A stretch of DNA of 63,304 nt, filler included, from Basidiobolus ranarum (taxonomy: Eukaryota), in NCBI GenBank assembly GCA_040143965.1. It is 21 parts of 21 records of this genome, joined end to end, with 100 filler letters (N's around TTAATTAATTAA, not from the genome) between each part and the next. Parts side by side here need not be neighbours in the genome. Positions count along the whole stretch, not along the records: positions 57,386 to 60,296 come from JASJQH010009750.1; 20 more parts are not named here. One strand, given 5' to 3'. Positions 193 to 60,396 of the stretch are shown here, piece by piece; position 1 is the stretch's first letter, and the number at the start of each line of letters is the position of its first letter. The position numbers and the translations under genes are program-made. Below the pieces are notes generated by a model. It was not told the DNA's origin, did not search any database, and was given only the letters and a program-made list of their open reading frames with translations.

Positions 193-2768
193 TGTACACC
201 AGTCATGATGAAAATCAAAAAATGCAAGAGTCTTGATGGGCTTGGTCTCTACATAAGCACCTATTTGACCAATCATATATAACACTACAACAGCAACATG
301 TTTCACCATCAAACTAATGGTGGAAAAGTTGATAAACATCTGAAATTTAGAACAGGATGGCAACTTAGTAAATGGCTGACTTCTGTTACATTGCCAATAA
401 GAATAAGCTCTTGGATTTTTGCAAATTGTGATATGAAATTTGCCCAAAATATCCTCCACTTGAATCACAATATGCCCTGCCCCAAATAGAAGTGGCACTT
501 CTTTTGTTTATTACCCCATGGCTAAAACAATAATGCCACATATCTTGATCTGTTGAACCAAGAAGTCTGTCTTACAGATTTCCTTGAAATGTCATCAGAT
601 TATTGTAAGAACAGCAAAGTCCTAATTATAGAGATACTGACCATGTGCTCACAGATTGAGAAATGTTGTAGTTATTATACTCAAAAAATGTGAAAAGCCA
701 TGACCATATTGAAAACAGCCCTGTGTTGGAAGGCATTTATAGTCAGGAGTCTCCTTTGCCCATTGCATGGTATTTATTACTGATTTTACAGTTACATCTT
801 TAATTATATCAGCATACCATAATCAAAATAAATTCACACAGTGTAATGTGGGACAGGGATGATGATCAAAGTACTCAGAAGAAAGCTTAATTCCACTACT
901 AATCTCCAGCAGAGCTGAATTTTTTATAGCTGCAGCTTTAAAATCTTTGTGAGATATATTGTTCACTCTATCTTCAAAGGATCACAAATAGCACTGACAC
1001 TTGGCAAATAGCTGACGCTTGTTACCATTCAAAATGAGAATAAGATCTTGGATTTTGGCCAATTTCCATAAAAAATGCAGCCTAAGTAACTTCAACTTGC
1101 AATCAACAGAAACCCTGCCACAAGTAAAATGTTGTGTCTTGAATAGATTACCCCATGTCAAAAACAACAATTATATGTTCCTTGCTATATATTGCTAACA
1201 AGTCTGTCTTGCAGCTTTACCACAAAATCCTTCAGAGTATTGAATGGGCAAAAAAGTTCAAATTATAGAGGTACTCCCTCTTTGTTCATGGGTTGTGTTT
1301 TGTTGCTTTATAGTGCTCAAACTATGCAAAAAGCCATGTGCACATTGAAAAGAGCCCCAAGTGGAGGGCAAATATAATCCCAAGCTTCCTTAACCCATCA
1401 CATTACAAACATCACCAATTTTGCTGTTACATTGTTAATTAGATAAGCATTTGGTAATACTGATAGTCTCACACAGAGCAACATTTTACCACTGGTATGC
1501 TCCATGAAGTGCTCCCAAAGTGTTTAGTGTACTCTCAGAATCTGCAGCCAGGGTCTAAAATCTCTAAGAAGTTGTGAATGATGCAGCAGTAAATATATTG
1601 AATACCAGTGTGGATTCAGTCTATCTTCTTCAAACCTGTAATAAGGTTTTTCATACCAAATTACAAACTTTTTGCACAGTTGCTGCATCTGCCTGAGATT
1701 GGCTAATATGAGCTAATGCCATATGAAAATATTAACAATATCCACAAACAACTTGCAATCTTGCCAATACGTATCAGGCAATAATCTTTTCAAGATTCCA
1801 CTTGAGTATATACAAATCCAATACTTCCAGTCTTTGCATTTGAATAAACACTTAAATGAGTGGATATTGATGAGAGTCCTGGCAAAATACAATGGTATCT
1901 TGAAGTTTTGAAGTATTTTTCCCATTGATTTCCAGCTTTGATACTATCTCCAATGGCTTATTTATATTGAATCTTCCACTTTATAGCTGAGTAAGTAGTA
2001 TAGAAATGTTGTTGCATAGTAAGTGCATAGTGCCTAATGGGAAGCTCTGGCTCTGGCTGATCTCCTTTGGCAATATATTATTAGGCTTATGGCCAATACC
2101 AAGTTTCATGTTGAACTAACTATTTGGTGAATCAATATCAATGGGCATGATGAAATCTGATTGGGCTCTAGATGGTAAAATGATGGAATTTAGAATTGTA
2201 TTTGAATAGTAGTAATATGTATGCCTGATGGAGTCAACACCATTGATTTGACAAAATCTACAGCAGGATAGTGCATTGTGCTCGCAAAAACCTCCAAGCT
2301 TACTGATGGCAAGAGTGTGACCAATATACCATGATCTTAGCTATAAAAAAAGATTCACCCACCTGACCCCATTAGATAGCCACTCCAATTCCAGAATCAA
2401 AGGCTCCAATAAGCTATTGACAAGCACTGGTGATTTAGGTCCAGATATGATGGATAGTATCAAATTATTATGACTCTTATACCATTCAAAAGGAGGAGTA
2501 TTTAAGTTGATTAAAATTATTGGCCAGCAAGCCTTTCCAATGGTATATTTGTTTAGTGAGAAACCATCCAGAGCCAATGCAAATGAATGATCATACATGT
2601 TCTCAAAGAAACCCTGACTTTTCAGATTCTGGTAGTGATATCCATCAAGTATATTGGTAATACCATCAGCTTTGCGGTGAGTACTTTGGTATTAGATCAA
2701 TGATCTATATTTGGGTGATTTCATCAAAACTTTAAGACAGGGAATCAATGGTATGTAAGCCAAAAATG
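193..2768 (-). mobile_element. Decayed CACTA/EnSpm (Transposase_21/tnp2-type) transposase; two nested fragments at about 193-830 and 980-2768
   Basis: Motifs ALALDGF, WPIILINLNxPP, ISGPKSP and LEPLILEL (2341-2598) and FKCKDWKYW (1713-1925). Many stops and frameshifts. 300-480 is repeated near 985-1150. Confidence 0.85.
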
Positions 2769-2930: not shown

Positions 2931-3030
2931 NNNNNNNNNNNNNNNNNNNNNNNNNNNNNNNNNNNNNNNNNNNNTTAATTAATTAANNNNNNNNNNNNNN
3001 NNNNNNNNNNNNNNNNNNNNNNNNNNNNNN
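2931..3030. other. Artificial contig linker (N44-TTAATTAATTAA-N44), first of 20
   Basis: Identical 100-nt spacers also start at 5960, 8988, 12015, 15041, 18066, 21090, 24112, 27133, 30153, 33172, 36191, 39208, 42223, 45237, 48251, 51264, 54275, 57286 and 60297. The 12-mer puts stops in all six frames, and contig lengths fall steadily from 2930 to 2908 bp. Confidence 0.98.
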
Positions 3031-3032
3031 CA

Positions 3033-3941
3033 CGCGAAGCTCATGGAAATATATTACATCCTATTGATGCTCACTTCAAGTCACTGAAACTTAATCATCT
3101 TACTCCAATGGATCACCACACTGAGGAGTTTAAACTGCTTGACAACTATGTCAAAAACACCCATGGCGAAACCCATAATACGTATACTCTGGAGGTTTTA
3201 GACGCTTTCCAATTGGAAAGATCTACAGAGCCCGAGAGATGGTTAGAAGGAGGTTGCGACAAGATAGGTAACAGAAAACTTCTCTGGCACGGCTCTAGAT
3301 TGTCAAACTTCGTTGGTATCCTAAGTCAAGGCCTAAGAATAGCACCACCTGAGGCACCAGTAACCGTAAGTAGCATCTTCACCTTTCGTCAGTTATGACT
3401 ACTCTCTTCTCATGTAGTCATGTTGATGATTTCAAATTCGGGATAATATTTCTAACACACACTTACTCAAAGGGCTACATGTTTGGAAAAGGTGTTTATT
3501 TTGCTGATTGTGTTTCCAAGTCTGCAAATTATTGCTTTGCTGATTATGGACGTAGTGAAGCACTAATGCTTCTATGTGAAGTTGCTCTTGGAGATGTATT
3601 ACCCCTCTACCATGCATCATATGAAGCTGGAGAGGAAGTCAAACAAGCGAAGAAGAACTCAACGCTTGGTCTAGGACGAATGGAACCAGATCCAAAAGGG
3701 GCCGTTACTATGGAGGATGGTGTTGAAGTGCCATGCGGCAAGGTCGGACAAAACCAAGATCCGACAATATTGAGCCAAGCTCAGTTGTATTATAATGAGG
3801 TAAAGTGAATCAATATTGAACCAACATCCTCTCACCGTTTCATTAACCAATACCCGTTATCTTATTCTTTAGTATATCGTATACAATACGTCTCAAATCA
3901 AGTTTAGGTACCTACTAAGAATGCGCTTCGATTATAATTAA
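3033..3941 (+). CDS. PARP: Poly(ADP-ribose) polymerase catalytic domain, 5'-partial; exons <3033-3365, 3473-3799, 3873-3941
   Basis: LLWHGSRLSNFVGILSQGLRIAPPEAPVT|GYMFGKGVYFAD and YNE|YIVYN give the H-Y-E triad. GT-AG introns (CTAAC branch site in the first) join the frames; TAA at 3939-3941. Confidence 0.95.
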
Positions 3942-6059: not shown

Positions 6060-8547
6060 GAGTGGAGAGTTTACTCCAATCTTAGCAACCAGGTGTTTAT
6101 TGGTTTTCTAACACTTTTACCACAGTTGATTGGCAACTGTTGCTTGCCACAGACCTGGTACAAGTGGAGAACACTTGTCAATTGTCTGACTTATAATCCT
6201 TCAGTAATTAAACTACCTTCATGTCCAAATGGTTGTTTGGTTTTCACCAGTGATCTGAAAAACCTGAAGTCATGTACTGTTTGCACACAATTGGCAATCA
6301 CTGAATCAGGAAAATATTGTTCATATTTGGCTTACATACCATTGATTCCCCATCTTAAAGTTTTGATGAAATCACACAAATATTGATCTTTGATCCAATA
6401 CCAAAGTACCACCGTAAAGCTGATGGTATTACTAATATACTTCATGGATATTACTATCAGAATCTGAAAAGTCAAGGTTTCTTCAAGAACACATATGATC
6501 ATGCATTTGCATTGGCTCTGGATGGTTTCTCACTAAACAACTATACTGTTGGAAAGGCTTGCTGGCCAATAATTTTAATTAACTTGAATCTTCCTCCTTC
6601 TGAACAGTATGTGAGTCATAATATTTTGATACTATCCATCATATCTGGACCTAAATCACCAGTGCATATAGATAGCTTCTTGGAGCCTTTGATTGTGGAA
6701 TTGAACGGTTATCTAATGGGATTCAGATGGGTGACTATTTTATTAAAGCTAATATCATTGTATGCATTGGAGACACCCCTGCCATCAGTAAACTTAGAGG
6801 ATTTTGTGGGCACAATGCACTATCTTGCTGTAGATTTTGTCAAATTAATGGAGCTTACTCTGACAGGCAAACACATTACTACTATCAAAATACAACACTA
6901 AACTCCTTGATTTTACCATCAAGAGCCCGGTCAGATTCTAACATGATCACTAATATCAATTCGCCAAATAATCAGTCTTACATCAAACTTGGTATTAGCT
7001 ATAAGCCTAAAATTATATTGCTAAAGGGAAGCAGCTGGAGCCAGAGCTTCCCTTTAGGCACTATGTACTTACTATTCAACAACATTCCAATACTACTTAC
7101 TTCGCTATATAGTGGAAAATTCCATATGAATGAGCCATTTGAGATCGGATCAAAGTTTGAATTGATTAGGAAAATGCTTGAAAACATCAAGACACCATCA
7201 TATTTTACCAGGACTCCCATCAATATCCACTCATCTAGGTGTTTATTCAAATGCAAAGACTGGAAGTATTGAATTTCTATATATTCAAGTGGAATTTTGA
7301 AAAGATTTCTTCCTGATAAATATTGGCAAGATTGGGAGTTGTTTGTGGATATTGTTAGAATATTCTTATGGCATCAACTACATTGGCAGATCTCAGGCAG
7401 AGACAGTGACTGTGCAAAGATTTTGTAATTGGACATAAAAAACTTTATTACAGGTTGAAAGAAGATGGACTGAATCTATGCTAGTATTCAAAACATTCCC
7501 TGCTGCATCTTTCACAATGCTTAGAGATTATAGGCCCTTGCTATACATTCTGGGAGTTCCCAATGGAGCACACCTGTGGTGAAATGATGCTCCATGTGAG
7601 ATTGTCAGTATTACTGTATTCTAATCTGATTAACAATGTATCAGCCAAATCAGTGATGGATGTAATGTGATGGGTTAAGGAGACTCAAGAGTATATTAAC
7701 CTGCCAACAAAGGGCTTTTATCAATGTGCTCACAGGTTTTTGCATTGTTTGAGCACAATAACCAAAACAAAGCCCAATCCAAGGACACATAGTAAGTACC
7801 TCTATAATCGGACTAATTTGCTTGTGTGATAATCTGACAATACTTTTAGGAAAGCTGCAAGACAGACTACTTGATGAGATAGTTCAAGATATGCAGGATT
7901 ATTGTTTTAGCCATGGGGTAATCTATTCCAGCAATGACACATCTACTTGTGGCAGGACATTAGTTGACTGCAAGTTGGGGATATATTGGCTGAATTCTTT
8001 ACGGAAATTTGCCAAAATCCAAGAGCTTATTCTCATTGTGAATGGTAGTAAGAGTCAGCTATTTGCCAAGTGTCAGTGCTTTTCAAAATTTCAGATGTTT
8101 AGCAATTTTTCCACCATTGGTTTGCTGGTAAAGCATATTGAAGTTGTTGAGTTATGTTTAAACAGTCAAGTATGAGCTTATGTAGAGACTAAACACAACA
8201 AGATTCTTATATTTTTTAATTCTCATTTTGGCTGGAATGCAAAGCCTAAAATAACTAAATAAAGGCATACATATCAAATTGGATTCCTACAGCAGTAAAC
8301 CCAGTAATTTGCCATTGAAAAATTATATTTTTGCAAAAATTGCCAGATATTGTATAACACATGCCAATTTGAGGAACAACATTTTAACATGTATGAATAC
8401 CATTAAAATACCATCAAGAAACCACCATCACTCCATTAAAATCCCTGGCAAGATGCAAGCTACCAACATTGTGATGGTTCTCTGATGGTTTTGCTCTTTT
8501 GGAGGGTGGATCCAATCTGGATCAAATTGATTTAATTTTTGTTAGGG
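6060..8547 (+). mobile_element. Decayed CACTA/EnSpm element: most of the transposase plus the 3' terminus
   Basis: CPNGC, ALALDGF, WPIILINLNLPP, GPKSP, DSFLEPLI, IGDTPAISKLRGFCGHNA..CRFC and WEFPME motifs in broken frames. Ends at GTTAGGG (8547). Confidence 0.88.
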
Positions 8548-33433: not shown

Positions 33434-34064
33434 TGTTGGATGAATTTCCGTATTCAGAGCAGGTCTACTATTTAACAAGTAGAAAAATGTAGATCCCTGC
33501 GGATCGATGTGCTAAACAGATGTAGTCCCTCGCTCATCATACTCCTGATCTACAGAGGCTCGCATCAAACGTGCTGATAAACATTGAGTGCGTGTATGAA
33601 CGAATGGAAATTGTAAGCTGTGTAAATATGTAAGATGCGATTCCTACAAGTAAAAATCAAATTCAAGATGATGATTTGCGCTATGATTATTAAGTTAAAT
33701 TAAATCATGTTTAAGCAACTCTGTTTAGCAGTCGTTGGTTTTTACATAAATTCCATGAAGTTGTTTGTTTATTTTGTTACTATTGATTCATTTGTCATTG
33801 GTGTTGACTTCACCAATCGACATATTTAGCAGTAACCGAAATAGCATAGTTGCCTGCTTTTAATGTTAGGTTAGTAAGGAGATTGAACAGCCCTCTGGTA
33901 GCAACTTGTAACTTGATTCAAGGTTATGGTTTGGTGTACTTAGGTAGAGCTACTTTGTGAATGTTTTCAGAGACTAAAAATACACTTCAATTGTTTCCAA
34001 AAATGCTGATAGAACAATATCAACATCTAAGTTAGGATTTCTTAGTCATGTATAGTAGCCATTC

Positions 34065-34739
34065 ATGTCTGATAAGAGTGTTGGAGCATGCAAATACAAC
34101 TATGGCTTTACATCTGCAGCCTCATTTTTAGCTTTGAGTACAATACTTGAGATATTAAGTATGGCCCTTCTGACTGGGCTCATTCTACAAGCACAAACAA
34201 ATATCACAAAAGCTGCACTAGTGGTAATAGCAGAAACTGAGGCCCGTCACGAAACATGGACCCTCATCGATATTTGGAATGTGGACCCATTCGGTGGACC
34301 ATCAGATACCATCTTTCCATATGCAAACCAGATTCTCGATGTTACCAACACATTTATCGTCCCAGGTTCTTGTCCAAAAGAGAATCTTACTTACCCTGAA
34401 CCATCCCAACATCTTCCCCAGCTCTCTCATGTCTCGAACTCCAACTCCACATTATTAGCGCCAGGGTCTCCGATCACTTTTTCATATCATAATCAATCCT
34501 TCGTTCCCACGTTCCAGGAAGGCAAGGATCATTATGCTGTATTCTTCCATGGGCTACTAAATATCACTATGCCGTTTGATACAAAAACGAACTCTTCTAC
34601 TATTCCACAGGAGTTTGAGAATAAGGGAGTTATTTTAGCTGTCATTGCGGATGTATCAGGTGCTCCTACAGAGGCGTCAGTACTGGCAGGACCACTAGTG
34701 ATCTTGCTACAACCGGCGGAACTTTCAAAATTGACTTGA
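34065..34739 (+). CDS. Ferritin-like (Ferritin_2/Rds1-like) protein, apparently lacking its N-terminus
   Basis: CKYNY, FLALSTILE, IAETEARH (ExxH) and FIVPGSCP; intronless 224 aa. Confidence 0.65.
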   Translation: MSDKSVGACKYNYGFTSAASFLALSTILEILSMALLTGLILQAQTNITKAALVVIAETEARHETWTLIDIWNVDPFGGPSDTIFPYANQILDVTNTFIVPGSCPKENLTYPEPSQHLPQLSHVSNSNSTLLAPGSPITFSYHNQSFVPTFQEGKDHYAVFFHGLLNITMPFDTKTNSSTIPQEFENKGVILAVIADVSGAPTEASVLAGPLVILLQPAELSKLT

Positions 34740-42322: not shown

Positions 42323-45236
42323 TAGAGATATTCCTATTTAGAATATAGGGGCTATAGATATGTTGCTTTCTGTTTCTGATATATGTATCATAACTAAAGT
42401 TAACTATGATGTTGAATAAAGATTAATTATCCATCACCTTCCCTTAATTCTTATTCAGCATTGTGCTTATATTCACTAATTCCTATTCCTGCCCTTAACT
42501 TCTCAAAGCTTGAAGTTTTGAGTGATTTTGTTAGTATATCTGCAAGTATGCGTTTGGTATTACAATAAATAAAGTTCACTTCTTTATCTTGAACTTTCTC
42601 TCTTATAAAATAATGTCTTATGTCAATATGTTTCATCCTTGAGTGATGCTCAGGATTCTTGATGATCTGAATACAACTAATATTATCTTGTTATATTGGG
42701 GTAGGATTAACTTGATCATATCCTAGTTCCTTGAGAAGGCTCCTTAGCCATATAGCTTCCTGAACAGCCATAGAGCTTGCCATATATTCTGCTTCTGTAG
42801 TTGATAATGCAACAGTTTGTTGTTTCTTGCTAATCCAGCTTATTGGCCCACCTGCTAGCTTAAACACATATCCAGTTCTGGATTTACAGTCTTCTGTATT
42901 GTTAGCCCAGTCTGCATCAGCATATCCTTCCAAAATAAGTGACATGTTGTACTGCTTACTAAATTGAATTCCATGATGTATTGTTCCTTTCAGATAGCAT
43001 ATTATCTGTTTCACAGCTATCCAATGTTCCATTGCAGGATTTTCCATATATTTGCTTACTATGCTTACTGCTGTAGCAATATCAGGCCTAGTACCAGTTG
43101 TTGCATATATGAGACTTCCAACTGCACTATGGTAAGGAATATGTTTCATGATTTCAATATCTTCAGAGGTCTTTGGTTCCATATTCTTAGTGAGTTTCAG
43201 CATACATAGTGGATTTGAAGCTGTTTTACATTCTGACATATTGAATCTGTTTAAAACATCTCCAATATATTTTTCTTGTGTAATACAGAGTGTTCCAATA
43301 GTGGAATTTTGATGTATCTGCATTCCAAGACAATATGCTAGTGATCCAAGATCTTGCATTTCAAACTTGGTAGATAGCCAGGTCTTAGTTTGTTTCATCA
43401 GATTTGAGCAATTACTAACTATTATGATATCATCAACATAGAGAGCAATTATCACTTTGGTGGCTTTGATAGTCTTGAAGTATATGCAGTGATCAGCTTT
43501 GCTACAATGGAAAAGATGTTTCATGAAGATCTGATTGATTTTGGTATTCCATGCACAAGGAGCCTGTTTCAGACCATATAGACTTCTCTGTAGTTTGCAT
43601 ACTTGATTTTCTTTTCCTTTTGCAATATATCCCTCTGGTTGATCCATGTATATATCTTCATCAATTTCTCCATTAAGAAATGCTGTCTTGACATCCATTT
43701 GTTCAATCAGCATTCCTTGGTGGGTAGCAATGGCTAGGATTACTCTGATTGAGGTAAACTTAGCAACGGGAGAAAATGTTTCATCATAGTCAATGCCATG
43801 TTTCTGAGCATAGCCTTTTACTACTAATCTTGCTTTGTACTGGTTGATAGATCCATCTGAGTTAAGTTTCAGTTTCAGCACCCATCTATTACCCATGGTT
43901 TTTCTTCCAGTAGGTAAGTCCACAAGGATAAATGTGTTATTCTTGATTAGGAAGTGAATTTCATCATCAGTGGCTTTGCTCCATTCTGTCATTTCATCAG
44001 ATTTCAGAGCCTATGTCAAATTTTCTGGTTCAGAAAATGGTATATGTGCAGATATATTCCACACTTTTTCTGAATTGAAACTGTTGATTTTATGCTCTGA
44101 TTTGAGACATCCAAAGACCTTGGTAGAATGGTCAGATGTTTCACTTACAGGATGTTTCTGATTTCCACTTGGCAGGATGTCTGAGACCTGATTGACTGAA
44201 TTTTGTGATTGATTGAATACTTGTTGTGATTGATTACATACTTCCAATAATTGATTGCATCTAATATCAACCAAATCAAGAGTAGGATATTTATTAGGTA
44301 TGTGATTGGTTAGAAAATTAATGCCTTGTTTCTGAGCCCAATTTCCTGATTCCTGATTGGTTGGAAAAATATCCTTTTTCTGATTACCATATTTTTTATT
44401 GGCAGAGAGAATATGCTGAATTCCAGAAGCTGATTCTAAATTATCAGTATCCTCAGAGTAATTATCAGGTTTTTTGGTATAAATTGGTGCATTTCCAGTG
44501 CTGCCTAATGTTTCACAACTCATATAGCTGCTTGATTCTAGAATATCATAAAATAGTTTGTTCTCCTTGGTTTCAGTACTCATAGTGAAGTTTGAGACAG
44601 GACTATTGCTTGTTGGTTTTCTGCTAGGAATATTCACCACAGGGATTGGTAACAATCTGAGCTTTGTCATATATTCATTGGTGGCTGATGTTTTAGACCT
44701 TGTCCCAGATGTGATATTTTCTAAATTTGGATAATGTTGATAGATAGTTTCAGTTTCCAAATCTGGCCTAATTGCAGTATCTATTTCCAATGTATAATTT
44801 TCCAATTTGGTTTCAGTACTTGTTTCCTCAAGATTGGTTTCAGAACTTGTTAACTCAGAATTTGAGCTATTTAGAAGCTAATTTTCAGCCAAAATCAAAT
44901 TCCCTTGATTACAAGATTTGAGATTTTCTTCAATGAATATGGTATCTCTGGAGTTGAAGATTAGATTTGTGCCAGCAATTAGGAGACAATAGCTTTTGTT
45001 CTAATATCCAAATAGGATATATTTGATTGCCTTTTTGTCCAATTTCCTATGCTGAGGTTTAGGAACAAGAGCATATACTATTGATCCAAAAATTCTGAGT
45101 TGATTCAGATTAGGCTTGTTTCCAGGCCAGATTTCAATAGGAGTTTTAGAGTCATGGTTGCTACATGTTGGACTTTAAATTTGGAGATATGTAGCTGTTG
45201 AAATAGCTTCATCCCAATAGGTCTTAGGCAGATCTG
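42323..45236 (-). mobile_element. Ty1/copia integrase C-terminus, RT, RNase H, PPT and 3' LTR type E (42323-42436)
   Basis: 433-aa RT/RH ORF (YKARLV, QMDVKTAFLNG, LYVDD, YADADWA) and KHIDIRHYF. In-frame stops at 44011 and 42691. PPT AAGGGAAGG abuts TGATGG. Confidence 0.96.
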
Positions 45237-55407: not shown

Positions 55408-56559
55408 CTACATTGGGGGGGGGAAGTTTTAAAACAACAAGTTTCTCTAGGAATGATAATCACAATACAATGTCCATCATTCTGTTAAAGAAATGATTGG
55501 TGCCTTGACAAAGAATATGCTGGTATCAACATCCTTTGATCTTGATCTAGTACTAAAGCTTCTTTGATCAAAAACAACTGTAAACTCAAACAGTACTGTC
55601 TTGACAAGGATGCACCTAGAGCAATTATCCAAAGGTGGAGGATATCTTTGCCTTAGCAGGGAAGCTTGGGAAAGATGGGTAATAAGAGGGAAGCTAACAT
55701 TGGGGGGCTTCAAGGTTGGAGAAGAGGGATGGAGAGAAGTCTACAGGCAGGTGTAAGTAGTCTGATCAAACTGTCACAATAAGGACCTGGACAAGGACTG
55801 AAAACAGAGACAAGAGGCTGGAAAGCAGGAGAGTACTTGGGTGTAGACCACAAGGCAAGACAAAACAAGACTAGACAGGGAAGATACTTTGGCAAGAATC
55901 TTTATTGATAACTGGCATTGATCAGACTGAGGTCTGATGAAGGAATAGATGGAGCTTATATAGATGTTGCAGGGTGAAACATAATATACTGAATAGGGAA
56001 TATACTGTGGCAAGTTCAAGTATTGGAGTGGTCTGGATTACAAGGACCAATACAAAGAGGGATGGTGCAAGGATGATAAGGTGATATTCCTTGGAAGGTC
56101 TTGGTGGAAATACACTATGTGTGAGATGCCAAGATTGGTTAGGTTTCATGGAATGTTCCAAAGAACATGACTTCAATATAAAGTTACCTGGATGAACTAG
56201 CACAAGATTGCTGAGAAAGGATGGCATAGCAAATAAGATGTGATGTCATAATTTAATAATAGAAGAGTTATATATGCAGTGGATGAGTATGCTGAGATGA
56301 GAATCATGAAAGATCTTGCCATTTCTATTATAGTCCTGTTAGCTCTTTTGGCAACTCCATTTTGTTGAGGTGAATAGGGGGCAGTAGTTTCTTGCTTAAT
56401 TCTATAAACTTTGCAAAATTGCTTAAATAGTCTTGAGGTATATTCTCCACCATTATCAGTATTTATTTTCTGATGGATAAGATCTTAGTGAACTTTCAGA
56501 TAATTAGTACTAAGCTATATATGACTATATAGGTGTTTAGGTAATGCTAATTTCATCAC

Positions 56560-57020: not shown

Positions 57021-57385
57021 TATTAATATATGGACTAATGAATTTCCAAGAATTTGTGTTCTCAGATTCACTCTTAGTTAGTATGCTAATTTGTATTTAC
57101 CTAGTAACACCATTTTTGTAGCAACACAAATTGCTCATTGGAGAGTGACTTGTCCAGGGATAATATTTGGGTGATACATTGCCTTTGCTTGTGTTACTAC
57201 AACACACAAGCAGTATTCTCAAAATACACAGAGGACTTGTTCTCTGTGATAGTGCCAGATTGTGCTGTATATATTGTATTGGATANNNNNNNNNNNNNNN
57301 NNNNNNNNNNNNNNNNNNNNNNNNNNNNNTTAATTAATTAANNNNNNNNNNNNNNNNNNNNNNNNNNNNNNNNNNNNNNNNNNNN

Positions 57386-58260
57386 TTTTTCAATATATGA
57401 TAGTTCAAGATCTTAGTATCTATTGTCATATAAGAAGGGATAAAGCCTTTTCGCAGTGGGAAGCAGTTAAACGATTTCATATTATTCTCTTCACATATTT
57501 TTGCGAGCATATAAAATGCGCGTAAATGCTGCTGCAGGTTTGCTTTGGCGTCGTAGTAAACAGAGCCCTTTGCAAACTTGTAGTTGTCTGGGTAAACATC
57601 CAAAAAGTTTTAAATTTGATGCACAGCCAAGTCATCCAAGAAATTTGCCGGGGTAGTTGTTACAGTTCTTGAAGATATTTCTACTTTAATCTTATCGCAG
57701 ACATCAAGTATATTGGCTTTGACTGAAGTTTTTATTTTCTCTTCTGAGCAGCTGTTGTTTTTCATATCTTGAGTCAGCTTCTCAATCTTTCCTTTTTTTT
57801 CGTAAAACCTTGTTTAGAAACATTCTGAGACGATTTCCAAAGTGAAGAGCTACCTTATTAATGTAGGCGGTATGAATCTTGATGCTTTCATAGATTGCTA
57901 TTTGTTGAGCATTCGCCGATTTAATAGGTGCATAGGAAGCAAGTTTACAACATTCTTCTTTATAAGCATTTATTTTCTCTCTCGCCTGACGCACTTTGGC
58001 GGAAAGCCGGGATTCGCCGGTGGTACTTCCATCTCTGACCCGTTTGTCAACAAGAGACAAAAAGACTTCACGAAAAAATCTTTTGTCACACATTCTTTCA
58101 AGCCGAATTCACTGCCTTTGGCAAACTCTTTTATAAAGATGAATTTCAAAAAGGCAAATGTGTGGGTCACAAGGTCGTTCACGTTATGAACCAACTCTTT
58201 TAGTACAGGCCTGTATTGTTCCTTCCATTCAATGGTAGACACTGACATCCTGACAGTCAT
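57386..58260 (-). pseudogene. Fanzor1-like (eukaryotic TnpB-family RNA-guided nuclease) N-terminal half, disrupted and 3'-partial
   Basis: Joined frames give LKELVHNVNDLVTHTFAFLKFIF, YESIKIHTAYINKVALHFGNRLRMFLN, YYDAKANLQQHLRAF and FNCFPLRKGFIPSYMTIDTKIL, the motif series I recognise from fungal and giant-virus Fanzor1. Two frameshifts and one TAA (57610-57612). RuvC is not in the contig. Confidence 0.8.
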
Positions 58261-60396
58261 TAATCTCTTAACGCTTGACGAAGAAGAACTCTTTTCAGCT
58301 TCTTGTAAAAGTAAAAGATATATAAGAACAAAAAAGTGTGACTGCTCATGTATGTTATTTCTTTACCTCCTATGTTTCTTCTTCTGACATAGTGTAATAT
58401 GAAATATTATGTATGTGAGATAAGGTGGAAATAAAGAGAAAGAAGCATGTAAGTTATTTTAAAGACAAATTAGTTTGTTGACGACATGTGGTGATATGAT
58501 CAATTGATCCAGATACGAGATAGCTTAGTTAAAAAACTTACTTCTGTTTGATTCACTTTATGATAAAGTGCATATTTCTATCAAACATAAATTCTTCAAT
58601 ATATATAGTACATAAAAAAAACTAAAACGACTAGTGTTACTGTTGACATTCGTCTGAATGCTTTTCTGTAATTGTCTAATTTTAGGTTAAAGCCTTGTAC
58701 CATAAAATGATTGCACTACTGCACGATAAGTGAGAGGGAAACCTGGTAAAGAGAGCAATACAAAGTGTGAACAATGAGTTTTAGGATAACTAGGGTAAAA
58801 GTCGACTAGAATGAAGATTTGAACCTAAAAATACATTACCTGGCAATTAATTACACCATATACTTACAGTTATTTAAATAATTTTCTGGCATCTCAGGTA
58901 TCCAAATCTTCAAGTATGTGGTTTCTGATTGTCTGTATATAAAATGGCTACTTTGGCTTCTTTATACCACAGTAAGTCTTATTACACTGTGAAGTCGATC
59001 CCAAAATTGGTTAGTCTATGGCGGTCAAAGCGGAATGTAGTGTTGTTTTGAAAATACCGCTATCCTGGCACTGAACTATAGCTATTGCTTTGTGCAACAA
59101 GCAGAAGATTCGTCAAGTTTGTCAGATATAACCATTCTGATTTCAAGATTTGGCTTTGTGAAATAAGCACTTACAATTAAATTAGAAATGAAGACTTACT
59201 TATGGTTGATGCTTAAAATTATCAATATGCGAGTGCCAATTCGTCACCCTACTTCATTCTAAATCCTTATTTCATTTATAGTAGTATTGGTTCGTGTAAA
59301 TACTCTGATCAAATCAAGAATAGAGTTAACTACTCTTCCAACTGTATTCTCGCTGCGACTATGCTCTACAACATCGTCCTGTGCGAAGCCGCATCCATAC
59401 GTATCACAAGCAAATATGTATCAAAAACATAACACGGACCCTCTTCACCCGCAAAGCTTGTTTATCCAATAGATGCTGGTATTCTTCTCGTTCGGCCTGC
59501 TCAAGTATCTGGGGGCGATATTTGGATGTTAACAGTACTTGGATAGGGTGCAGTGCATACACCATTTGAACTCCAATTGTAGCAGCTTCAATGAATGAGT
59601 ACTCCAGGTATTAGTACGTATTAGTCTGAGCCAATGTGCTTATTGTCTGGCACTTCACTCAGACATGTACGCGTCACACGAAGTCCACAAATCACGACGA
59701 TACAGAGTAAAACCGTCTGACTTGTTGATTGCCATTTTCTTCAACATCCAAGTCTATGGATGAGACCGAGAAGTAGTCTCATACTATGTTTTATTTACGA
59801 TCACTGCCCATTGTTAAGATTCATCCAACGTTTCCACTCCTACTTCACATATTGAATGATTGCTATCGCTTTATTTGGGACTCACAATTCCTACTCCTTT
59901 CTGCTAGCTATAGAGTAGGCTGTGGGATTGCAGTGATCATGTAGTGGTGATAAATCTGTATACCTGAACATACACTATTGCAACTAATGACCAATATCCC
60001 TTTTTCAAGAATCAAGTTATAGCAGGTGTTAAACTTGGACGCTGATATAAGGAGGTGGTTTCAAAGTGACTTCCCATATCGAGCATACGGTTTATTGCAT
60101 AGGGGCAGCTTTGCGGGTGATTCTTAGTAAGTCCCAACATTGATATTGGATCATTAAATTGATTTCGCCGCTTTGATGGAGTACACCACATTCTATTGTG
60201 ACTGACAGAGTTGCATGAAGTGGCTTGTTTGCCAAGATCAAGGATGGTTCAACTTCTTTCGTACTGGGACCGATGCACTCACTATCATTGTATTGGNNNN
60301 NNNNNNNNNNNNNNNNNNNNNNNNNNNNNNNNNNNNNNNNTTAATTAATTAANNNNNNNNNNNNNNNNNNNNNNNNNNNNNNNNNNNNNNNNNNNN

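Follow-up and report, generated by a model that had tools for sequence, protein, structure and literature searches.

A truncated and frame-broken Fanzor1 gene of the PpFz1-like lineage at the end of a small contig of Basidiobolus ranarum

The DNA analyzed here (the window, 63,304 nt in all) consists of 21 contigs of Basidiobolus ranarum, sorted by size from 2930 down to 2908 bp and joined end to end. The linker between them is identical throughout, with 44 N, the six-frame-stop sequence TTAATTAATTAA and again 44 N (for example at 2931-3030 and 57286-57385), and any feature that spans a linker is an artefact. A remnant of a Fanzor1 gene is present on the twentieth contig (57386-60296, JASJQH010009750.1). 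It lies on the minus strand and reads toward 57386, where it is cut mid-gene by the end of this 2.9-kb unplaced contig; the DNA before 57286 is from a different and unrelated contig. In a tblastn search with 21 homologues, matches to the window were confined to 57388-58308. The original prediction of a gene hidden across short ORFs, interrupted by two frameshifts and one stop and broken off by the contig end, is borne out by the minus-strand translations. Its coordinates hold for the gene pieces but need correction at both ends: 57334-57385 consists of linker N and TTAATTAATTAA, and homology begins near 58302-58308, which is upstream of the ATG (58260). The features of the locus are collected in Table 1.

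Table 1. Features of the Fanzor1 remnant and its surroundings (window coordinates; PpFz1 residues are approximate)
Feature	Position	Strand	Basis or counterpart
Artificial linker, where the gene is cut	57286..57385	.	sequence: N44-TTAATTAATTAA-N44
Whole homologous region, pre-RuvC N-terminal part	57386..58308	-	tblastn, read-through alignment, PDB matches
Piece 4, 74 codons, most conserved, FPLR..FIP.YMTIDT strands (WED by homology)	57388..57609	-	~PpFz1 318-390
Break 3, in-frame TAA; Gln in B. ranarum relative P0001	57610..57612	-	sequence compared with P0001
Piece 3, 60 codons, REC	57613..57792	-	~PpFz1 252-314
Break 2, A8 run on the minus strand, one base extra, first frame restored	57793..57800	-	sequence and homology
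Piece 2, 93 codons, other frame, REC helices	57794..58072	-	~PpFz1 163-259
Break 1, minus-strand T6 run lacking one base for the homologous frame	58073..58078	-	sequence and homology
Piece 1, 78 codons, first WED strand and REC start (by homology)	58075..58308	-	~PpFz1 105-178
First in-frame ATG, 16 codons inside the homologous region	58258..58260	-	sequence and alignment
Rest of contig upstream of the gene	58309..60296	.	ORF, Rfam and repeat scans

From stop to stop, the minus strand carries four open pieces (57970-58362, 57782-58108, 57610-57813 and 57386-57609). Pieces 1, 3 and 4 share a common frame and piece 2 lies in a shifted one, and joining them takes two one-base frame changes and one in-frame TAA. 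At the first break the homology passes from one frame (VTKDFF) to the other (REVFLSLV), and past the second break the homology to the B. ranarum protein P0001 (RKK..IEKLTQD) resumes in the first frame. The four motifs quoted in the original prediction, LVHNVNDLVTHTFAFLKFIF, YESIKIHTAYINKVALHFGNRLRMFLN, YYDAK and FNCFPLRKGFIPSYMTIDTKIL, are all found in these translations. A read-through protein was made by joining the four pieces with an X at each of the three breaks. It is 308 aa long, or 291 aa when counted from the ATG at 58260, the latter agreeing with the joined protein of about 290 aa proposed before. Two proteins align with it end-to-end: P0005 of Rhizopus stolonifer, at 56.7% identity over 300 aa (E 2e-119), and P0147 of R. 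microsporus, at 54.2% over 310 aa (E 6e-114). Introns in place of the frame changes were considered and rejected, as at the homopolymers one homologous frame passes into the other with a direct overlap, and no gap appears there in the read-through alignment. The alignment continues across the breaks, so that the frame changes are not introns and the match is not due to chance. In the open frame back to 58362 there is no in-frame ATG upstream of 58260, and the homologues begin 3-13 residues ahead of the start of the alignment. Judged from the sequence, the normal start would be either lost or located within an unrecognised upstream exon.

Searches of the PDB matched all four pieces to the same chain, 9cf0_P, which contains the Fanzor1 of Parasitella parasitica (PpFz1). 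Piece 1 aligned to chain residues 514-587 (E 6e-16), piece 2 to 572-668 (E 1.7e-17), piece 3 to 661-723 (E 2.2e-5) and piece 4 to 727-799 (E 9.9e-22), and piece 4 also found SpuFz1 (8gkh, E 0.015). The pieces are in collinear order on 9cf0 and correspond to approximately residues 105-390 of the 850 residues of PpFz1, ahead of RuvC. The 9cf0 chain is an MBP fusion, and by our own count the PpFz1 number would be the chain number minus 409, since R448 falls on chain R857, and P614/P616 on chain P1023/P1025, in the alignment of P0147 with 9cf0; according to the description of PpFz1, R448 is in the WED-to-RuvC loop and P614/P616 are in the FRI loop (PMC11423790). By this numbering, 58 residues separate the end of the fragment from R448 and about 96 separate it from the RuvC-I aspartate (chain 895), which shows the fragment to be a pre-RuvC half, as proposed earlier. 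The published domain order is a WED strand, REC, WED, and then RuvC with TNB (PMC11423790), and the putative REC and WED labels of the fragment are taken from it.

In the PDB searches, none of the pieces had a significant direct match among TnpB or Cas12 chains, and Pfam returned no family, including none of the TnpB type, for the four pieces. A Pfam line for HEPN_LA2681 (E 0.063, 13 bits against a cut-off of 27) was treated as chance. Family membership therefore draws on the PDB and protein-database matches and not on a curated profile. These sequence matches place the fragment in the Fanzor1 family, as had been predicted, and the gene corresponds by homology to the 5' third of a Fanzor1 of the PpFz1-like lineage, which occurs in Mucorales and Basidiobolus.

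Of 24 candidates in a protein-database search with piece 4, 21 had an E of at most 0.01, and all of the named matches were from B. ranarum (up to 88% identity, the value for P0001), Rhizopus and Gilbertella. The label PF26935.1 is attached to 17 of these 21 proteins, and a Pfam scan of P0001 found no families. A profile search that scored 7,999 candidates extended the set to 97 proteins (E up to 1e-10); they belong to many Mucorales (Rhizopus, Gilbertella, Pilaira, Helicostylum, Thamnidium, Mucor, Phycomyces and Parasitella), with B. ranarum, Coemansia and Dispira as further hosts. The full-length relatives display the hallmarks of the nuclease half, namely LIDPGRRD, DEF(K/R)TSS (also NEY-KTSS) and then CPxC...C..C and WNRD..A.LNF. 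The RuvC catalytic triad is present in P0003, P0008 and P0020, and the window copy ends before the first Asp. The nearest full-length relative, P0147, matched 9cf0 in one stretch over its residues 7-723 (E 2.4e-169) and 8gkh with an E of 2e-48, while P0020 of Gilbertella matched 9cf0 (E 4.5e-140), SpuFz1 (8gkh, 9.5e-39) and the Guillardia theta Fz1 (GtFz1, 9cer, 8.4e-7). Pfam matches to Cas12f1-like_TNB (PF07282) were seen in five of seven relatives, at E values of 0.0043-0.036 that all lie under the 26.3-bit cut-off. A long insertion, only loosely aligned to PpFz1, occupies the place of FRI in P0147 and in P0003; the window copy ends well before it.

Could the fragment derive from something other than Fanzor, such as a fungal protein that shares the N-terminal domain and continues into a domain unrelated to RuvC, or a domesticated fragment with a function in the host? 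The absence of RuvC or zinc-finger sequence from the window would fit such an origin, as would the lack of a Pfam family on the pieces. However, the closest full-length relatives (P0147, P0003 and P0020) all run on into RuvC and the zinc-finger TNB, where the original prediction had looked for a non-RuvC continuation as contrary evidence, and a frame broken three times speaks against a conserved host function. We consider a non-Fanzor origin extremely improbable, and the fragment is treated below as part of a Fanzor1.

The contig on which the remnant is found provides little of the surrounding element. Missing from it are the last WED strands and all that would follow them, namely RuvC with its zinc-finger TNB and the omegaRNA, and also the ends of the element. 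Between 58309 and 60296 there is no long ORF, no Rfam match and no convincing terminal repeat, leaving the 5' end of the element undefined. Rfam (E up to 1) returned no match on the contig as a whole (57386-60296), and a repeat scan of the same contig detected short imperfect pairs only, with no credible terminal inverted repeats. Around the Fanzor1 copy, neither transposon ends nor target duplications could be defined. Fragments of retrotransposons and of a tnp2 transposase are present on other contigs. Copia-type pieces include an open 439-aa frame for an RVT_2 reverse transcriptase (42694-44010, minus strand, E 4.6e-81) and an integrase-core fragment (rve; 56197-56484, minus strand, E 5.9e-8). 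Fragments of a tnp2-type DNA transposase (Transposase_21, E 5.9e-11) occur on two contigs, at 6359-7269 (plus strand) and 2344-2691 (minus strand); on contig 3 they comprise two overlapping ORFs in different frames, suggestive of a further transposon copy with a frameshift. There are also host sequences in the window. A 226-aa open frame at 34059-34736 (plus strand) has a ferritin-like domain (Ferritin_2, E 1.2e-6) and is probably an exon of a host gene. The 3' part of a spliced poly(ADP-ribose) polymerase (PARP) gene occupies 3033-3938 (plus strand), with exons at 3033-3365, 3473-~3805 and ~3873-3938. Over the exons 3033-3365 and 3473-3805, its identity is 85% to B. ranarum, 68% to B. meristosporus and 56% to Neoconidiobolus proteins. 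This single gene points to a eukaryotic host in the genus Basidiobolus, most likely close to B. ranarum.

The locus has no open, translatable gene, given the two frame changes, the TAA and the lack of an ATG in the place of the homologous start. With these breaks and the missing start, the copy would be unable to make a Fanzor1 protein and is best described as a pseudogene fragment. Sequence conservation is nevertheless high, as the window copy keeps all 26 of the columns that are invariant in 10 homologues and 12 of 14 nearly invariant ones. The retained invariant columns indicate that the decay is probably recent, and very probably the locus represents a recently decayed copy of a Fanzor1 transposon.

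An alternative is an intact and possibly active gene, for which the frame changes, and possibly also the stop, stem from errors in a low-coverage unplaced contig and the 3' half is on another contig. Each frame change amounts to a single base in the length of a homopolymer (T6 or A8), and homopolymers are also where assembly errors occur in low-coverage small contigs; the cut by the contig end is artificial, and retention of all the invariant positions would suit a live gene equally. The TAA, however, is a substitution and not a homopolymer length error, and there is no ATG at the homologous start. The PARP gene, on another small contig (contig 2), is clean over 226 aligned codons, with two exons and an intron and no frame change, and the annotated B. 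ranarum relatives of the Fanzor1 are fragments in every case (see below). These points make an intact gene improbable. The breaks are probably real, and a recently decayed copy remains the reading that we prefer. As for the truncation, most likely the repeat nature of the element broke the assembly, and the Fanzor1 element would then be multi-copy in its host.

Five B. ranarum proteins related to the window copy were available (P0001, P0014, P0019, P0198 and P0206). None is full length (166, 213, 150, 204 and 247 aa) and several of the gene models skip parts. P0198 carries the RuvC motif VIIDPGRRDLL, which in part already counters a non-Fanzor origin. The tblastn search with 21 homologues revealed neither a second Fanzor1 copy nor a C-terminal half within the 63,304-nt window. 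With only fragments among these relatives, the suggestion that more copies exist elsewhere, some of them intact, is weakened. The accompanying suggestion that the family may be uncharacterised does not stand, given that a close relative in the Mucorales has cryo-EM structures, a TAM and a guide RNA.

A tree was inferred from the N-terminal region, using 42 of the 56 matches whose alignment with the read-through was 140 aa or longer; those left out, solely for want of a label in a hand-made table, were P0007, P0009, P0011, P0013, P0150, P0155, P0160, P0162, P0168, P0174, P0188, P0192, P0196 and P0202. After a quick tree P0213 was removed for its very long branch, and the careful tree comprised 42 rows and 298 columns. 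The window copy groups with B. ranarum P0001 (support 100/99), and this pair joins R. microsporus P0003 (97/91) and next P0005 plus P0147 (97/91), so that the neighbours are three Rhizopus proteins. B. ranarum P0206 is found in a separate clade, together with proteins of R. arrhizus and R. delemar (100/98), and Coemansia falls far outside. Forcing 29 named Mucorales rows together, a group chosen after the tree had been seen, cost 202 log-likelihood units (AU p 1.3e-75).

Taken at face value, this topology would be produced if the Fanzor1 copies of Basidiobolus, rather than descending vertically, derived from horizontal transfer, on two or more occasions, of PpFz1-like elements between Basidiobolus and Rhizopus-like Mucorales. 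Such transfer has a precedent in the account of Saito et al., where Fanzors are described as probably transferred among eukaryotes (PMC10432273). Against it, old paralogous lineages combined with patchy loss would account for the same tree. The PARP catalytic region served as a yardstick, with the qualification that it is a single host gene, and is 53-58% identical to ten Mucoromycota proteins. The lineage of the window copy, at 54-57% identity to Rhizopus over the full span, is no higher than this. A strong excess of similarity between the window copy and Rhizopus had been considered from the 80% identity seen in a 74-aa piece, and was dropped once the full-span values were at hand. A second B. 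ranarum Fanzor1 lineage, lying outside the window (P0198 and P0206), is 71-75% identical to R. arrhizus P0008, well above the PARP values, and these sequences hint at cross-phylum transfer more than the window's own lineage does. Overall, we regard the transfers as possible rather than probable. If they did occur, they would amount to cross-phylum spread of an RNA-guided nuclease transposon, which is one instance and not a new principle, and the Parasitella/Rhizopus lineage with its cyclophilin-binding insertion would gain a third, distant host.

As described for characterized members, Fanzor1 proteins are encoded in transposons and related to TnpB and Cas12; the omegaRNA that they bind is transcribed from the element's 3' end, a short TAM is read via WED and REC, and RuvC cleaves the DNA (PMC10432273, PMC11423790). 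In PpFz1, it is the WED/REC part that reads the TAM and in which the first guide nucleotides are held (PMC11423790). By analogy, the piece preserved in B. ranarum would be this guide-start-holding, TAM-reading portion of a former Fanzor1. The copy may have decayed through the frame changes in the T6 and A8 runs, the TAA and loss of the start, and the repetitive nature of the element may have ended the contig before the RuvC half. The mechanistic value of the locus is small, as Fanzor1 is known, PpFz1 is available with structures, TAM and guide RNA, and the copy lacks its nuclease half. It serves instead as a marker for the present or past residence of PpFz1-like Fanzor1 elements in Basidiobolus. 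It is a truncated, decayed copy in a known and structurally solved family.

A full-text search of the literature returned no paper pairing Fanzor with Basidiobolus, although the supplementary tables of Saito et al. 2023 may list the genus; two papers mention Fanzor1 together with Rhizopus. The ancestral architecture is that of bacterial TnpB (IS200/IS605 and IS607) and Cas12, in which WED/REC is followed by a RuvC domain split by the zinc-finger TNB. The relatives of the window copy give weak Cas12f1-like_TNB matches, and the context here is eukaryotic. Among the eukaryotic proteins, SpuFz1 of Spizellomyces punctatus (PDB 8gkh; Saito et al. 2023, PMC10432273) is of the same family but much more distant, and its recognisable likeness to the window copy is limited to the FPLR/IDT stretch of WED. 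Closer to hand are the Fanzor1 of Rhizopus, Mucor and Phycomyces, described as the ROr, MCi and PBl families by Bao and Jurka (2013, PMC3627910), who already recorded four Fanzor1 families in Rhizopus oryzae. Rhizopus proteins are the closest named full-span relatives of the window copy (54-57% identity over 300-310 aa). The ROr, MCi and PBl elements were defined with their ends, some of them MuDR-like with 9-bp duplications (PMC3627910), whereas the window copy has no definable ends.

The best-characterized counterpart is PpFz1 (PDB 9cf0-9cf3; Xu et al. 2024, PMC11423790). It is reported to recognize a 5'-ATN TAM, to use a 75-nt omegaRNA and to carry the cyclophilin-binding FRI insertion, a segment of about 100 aa within RuvC that the same report describes only from Parasitella and Rhizopus (PMC11423790). 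P0147 matches PpFz1 over 717 residues, the RuvC-insertion region included. PpFz1 is intact and active in vitro (PMC11423790), whereas the window copy is broken three times and has nothing after about PpFz1 residue 390; at the other end, the first ~104 residues of PpFz1 are without a counterpart. The hosts also differ, being a member of the Mucorales in one case and Basidiobolus in the other. Over the part that they have in common, the window copy displays the same N-terminal WED/REC motifs as PpFz1.
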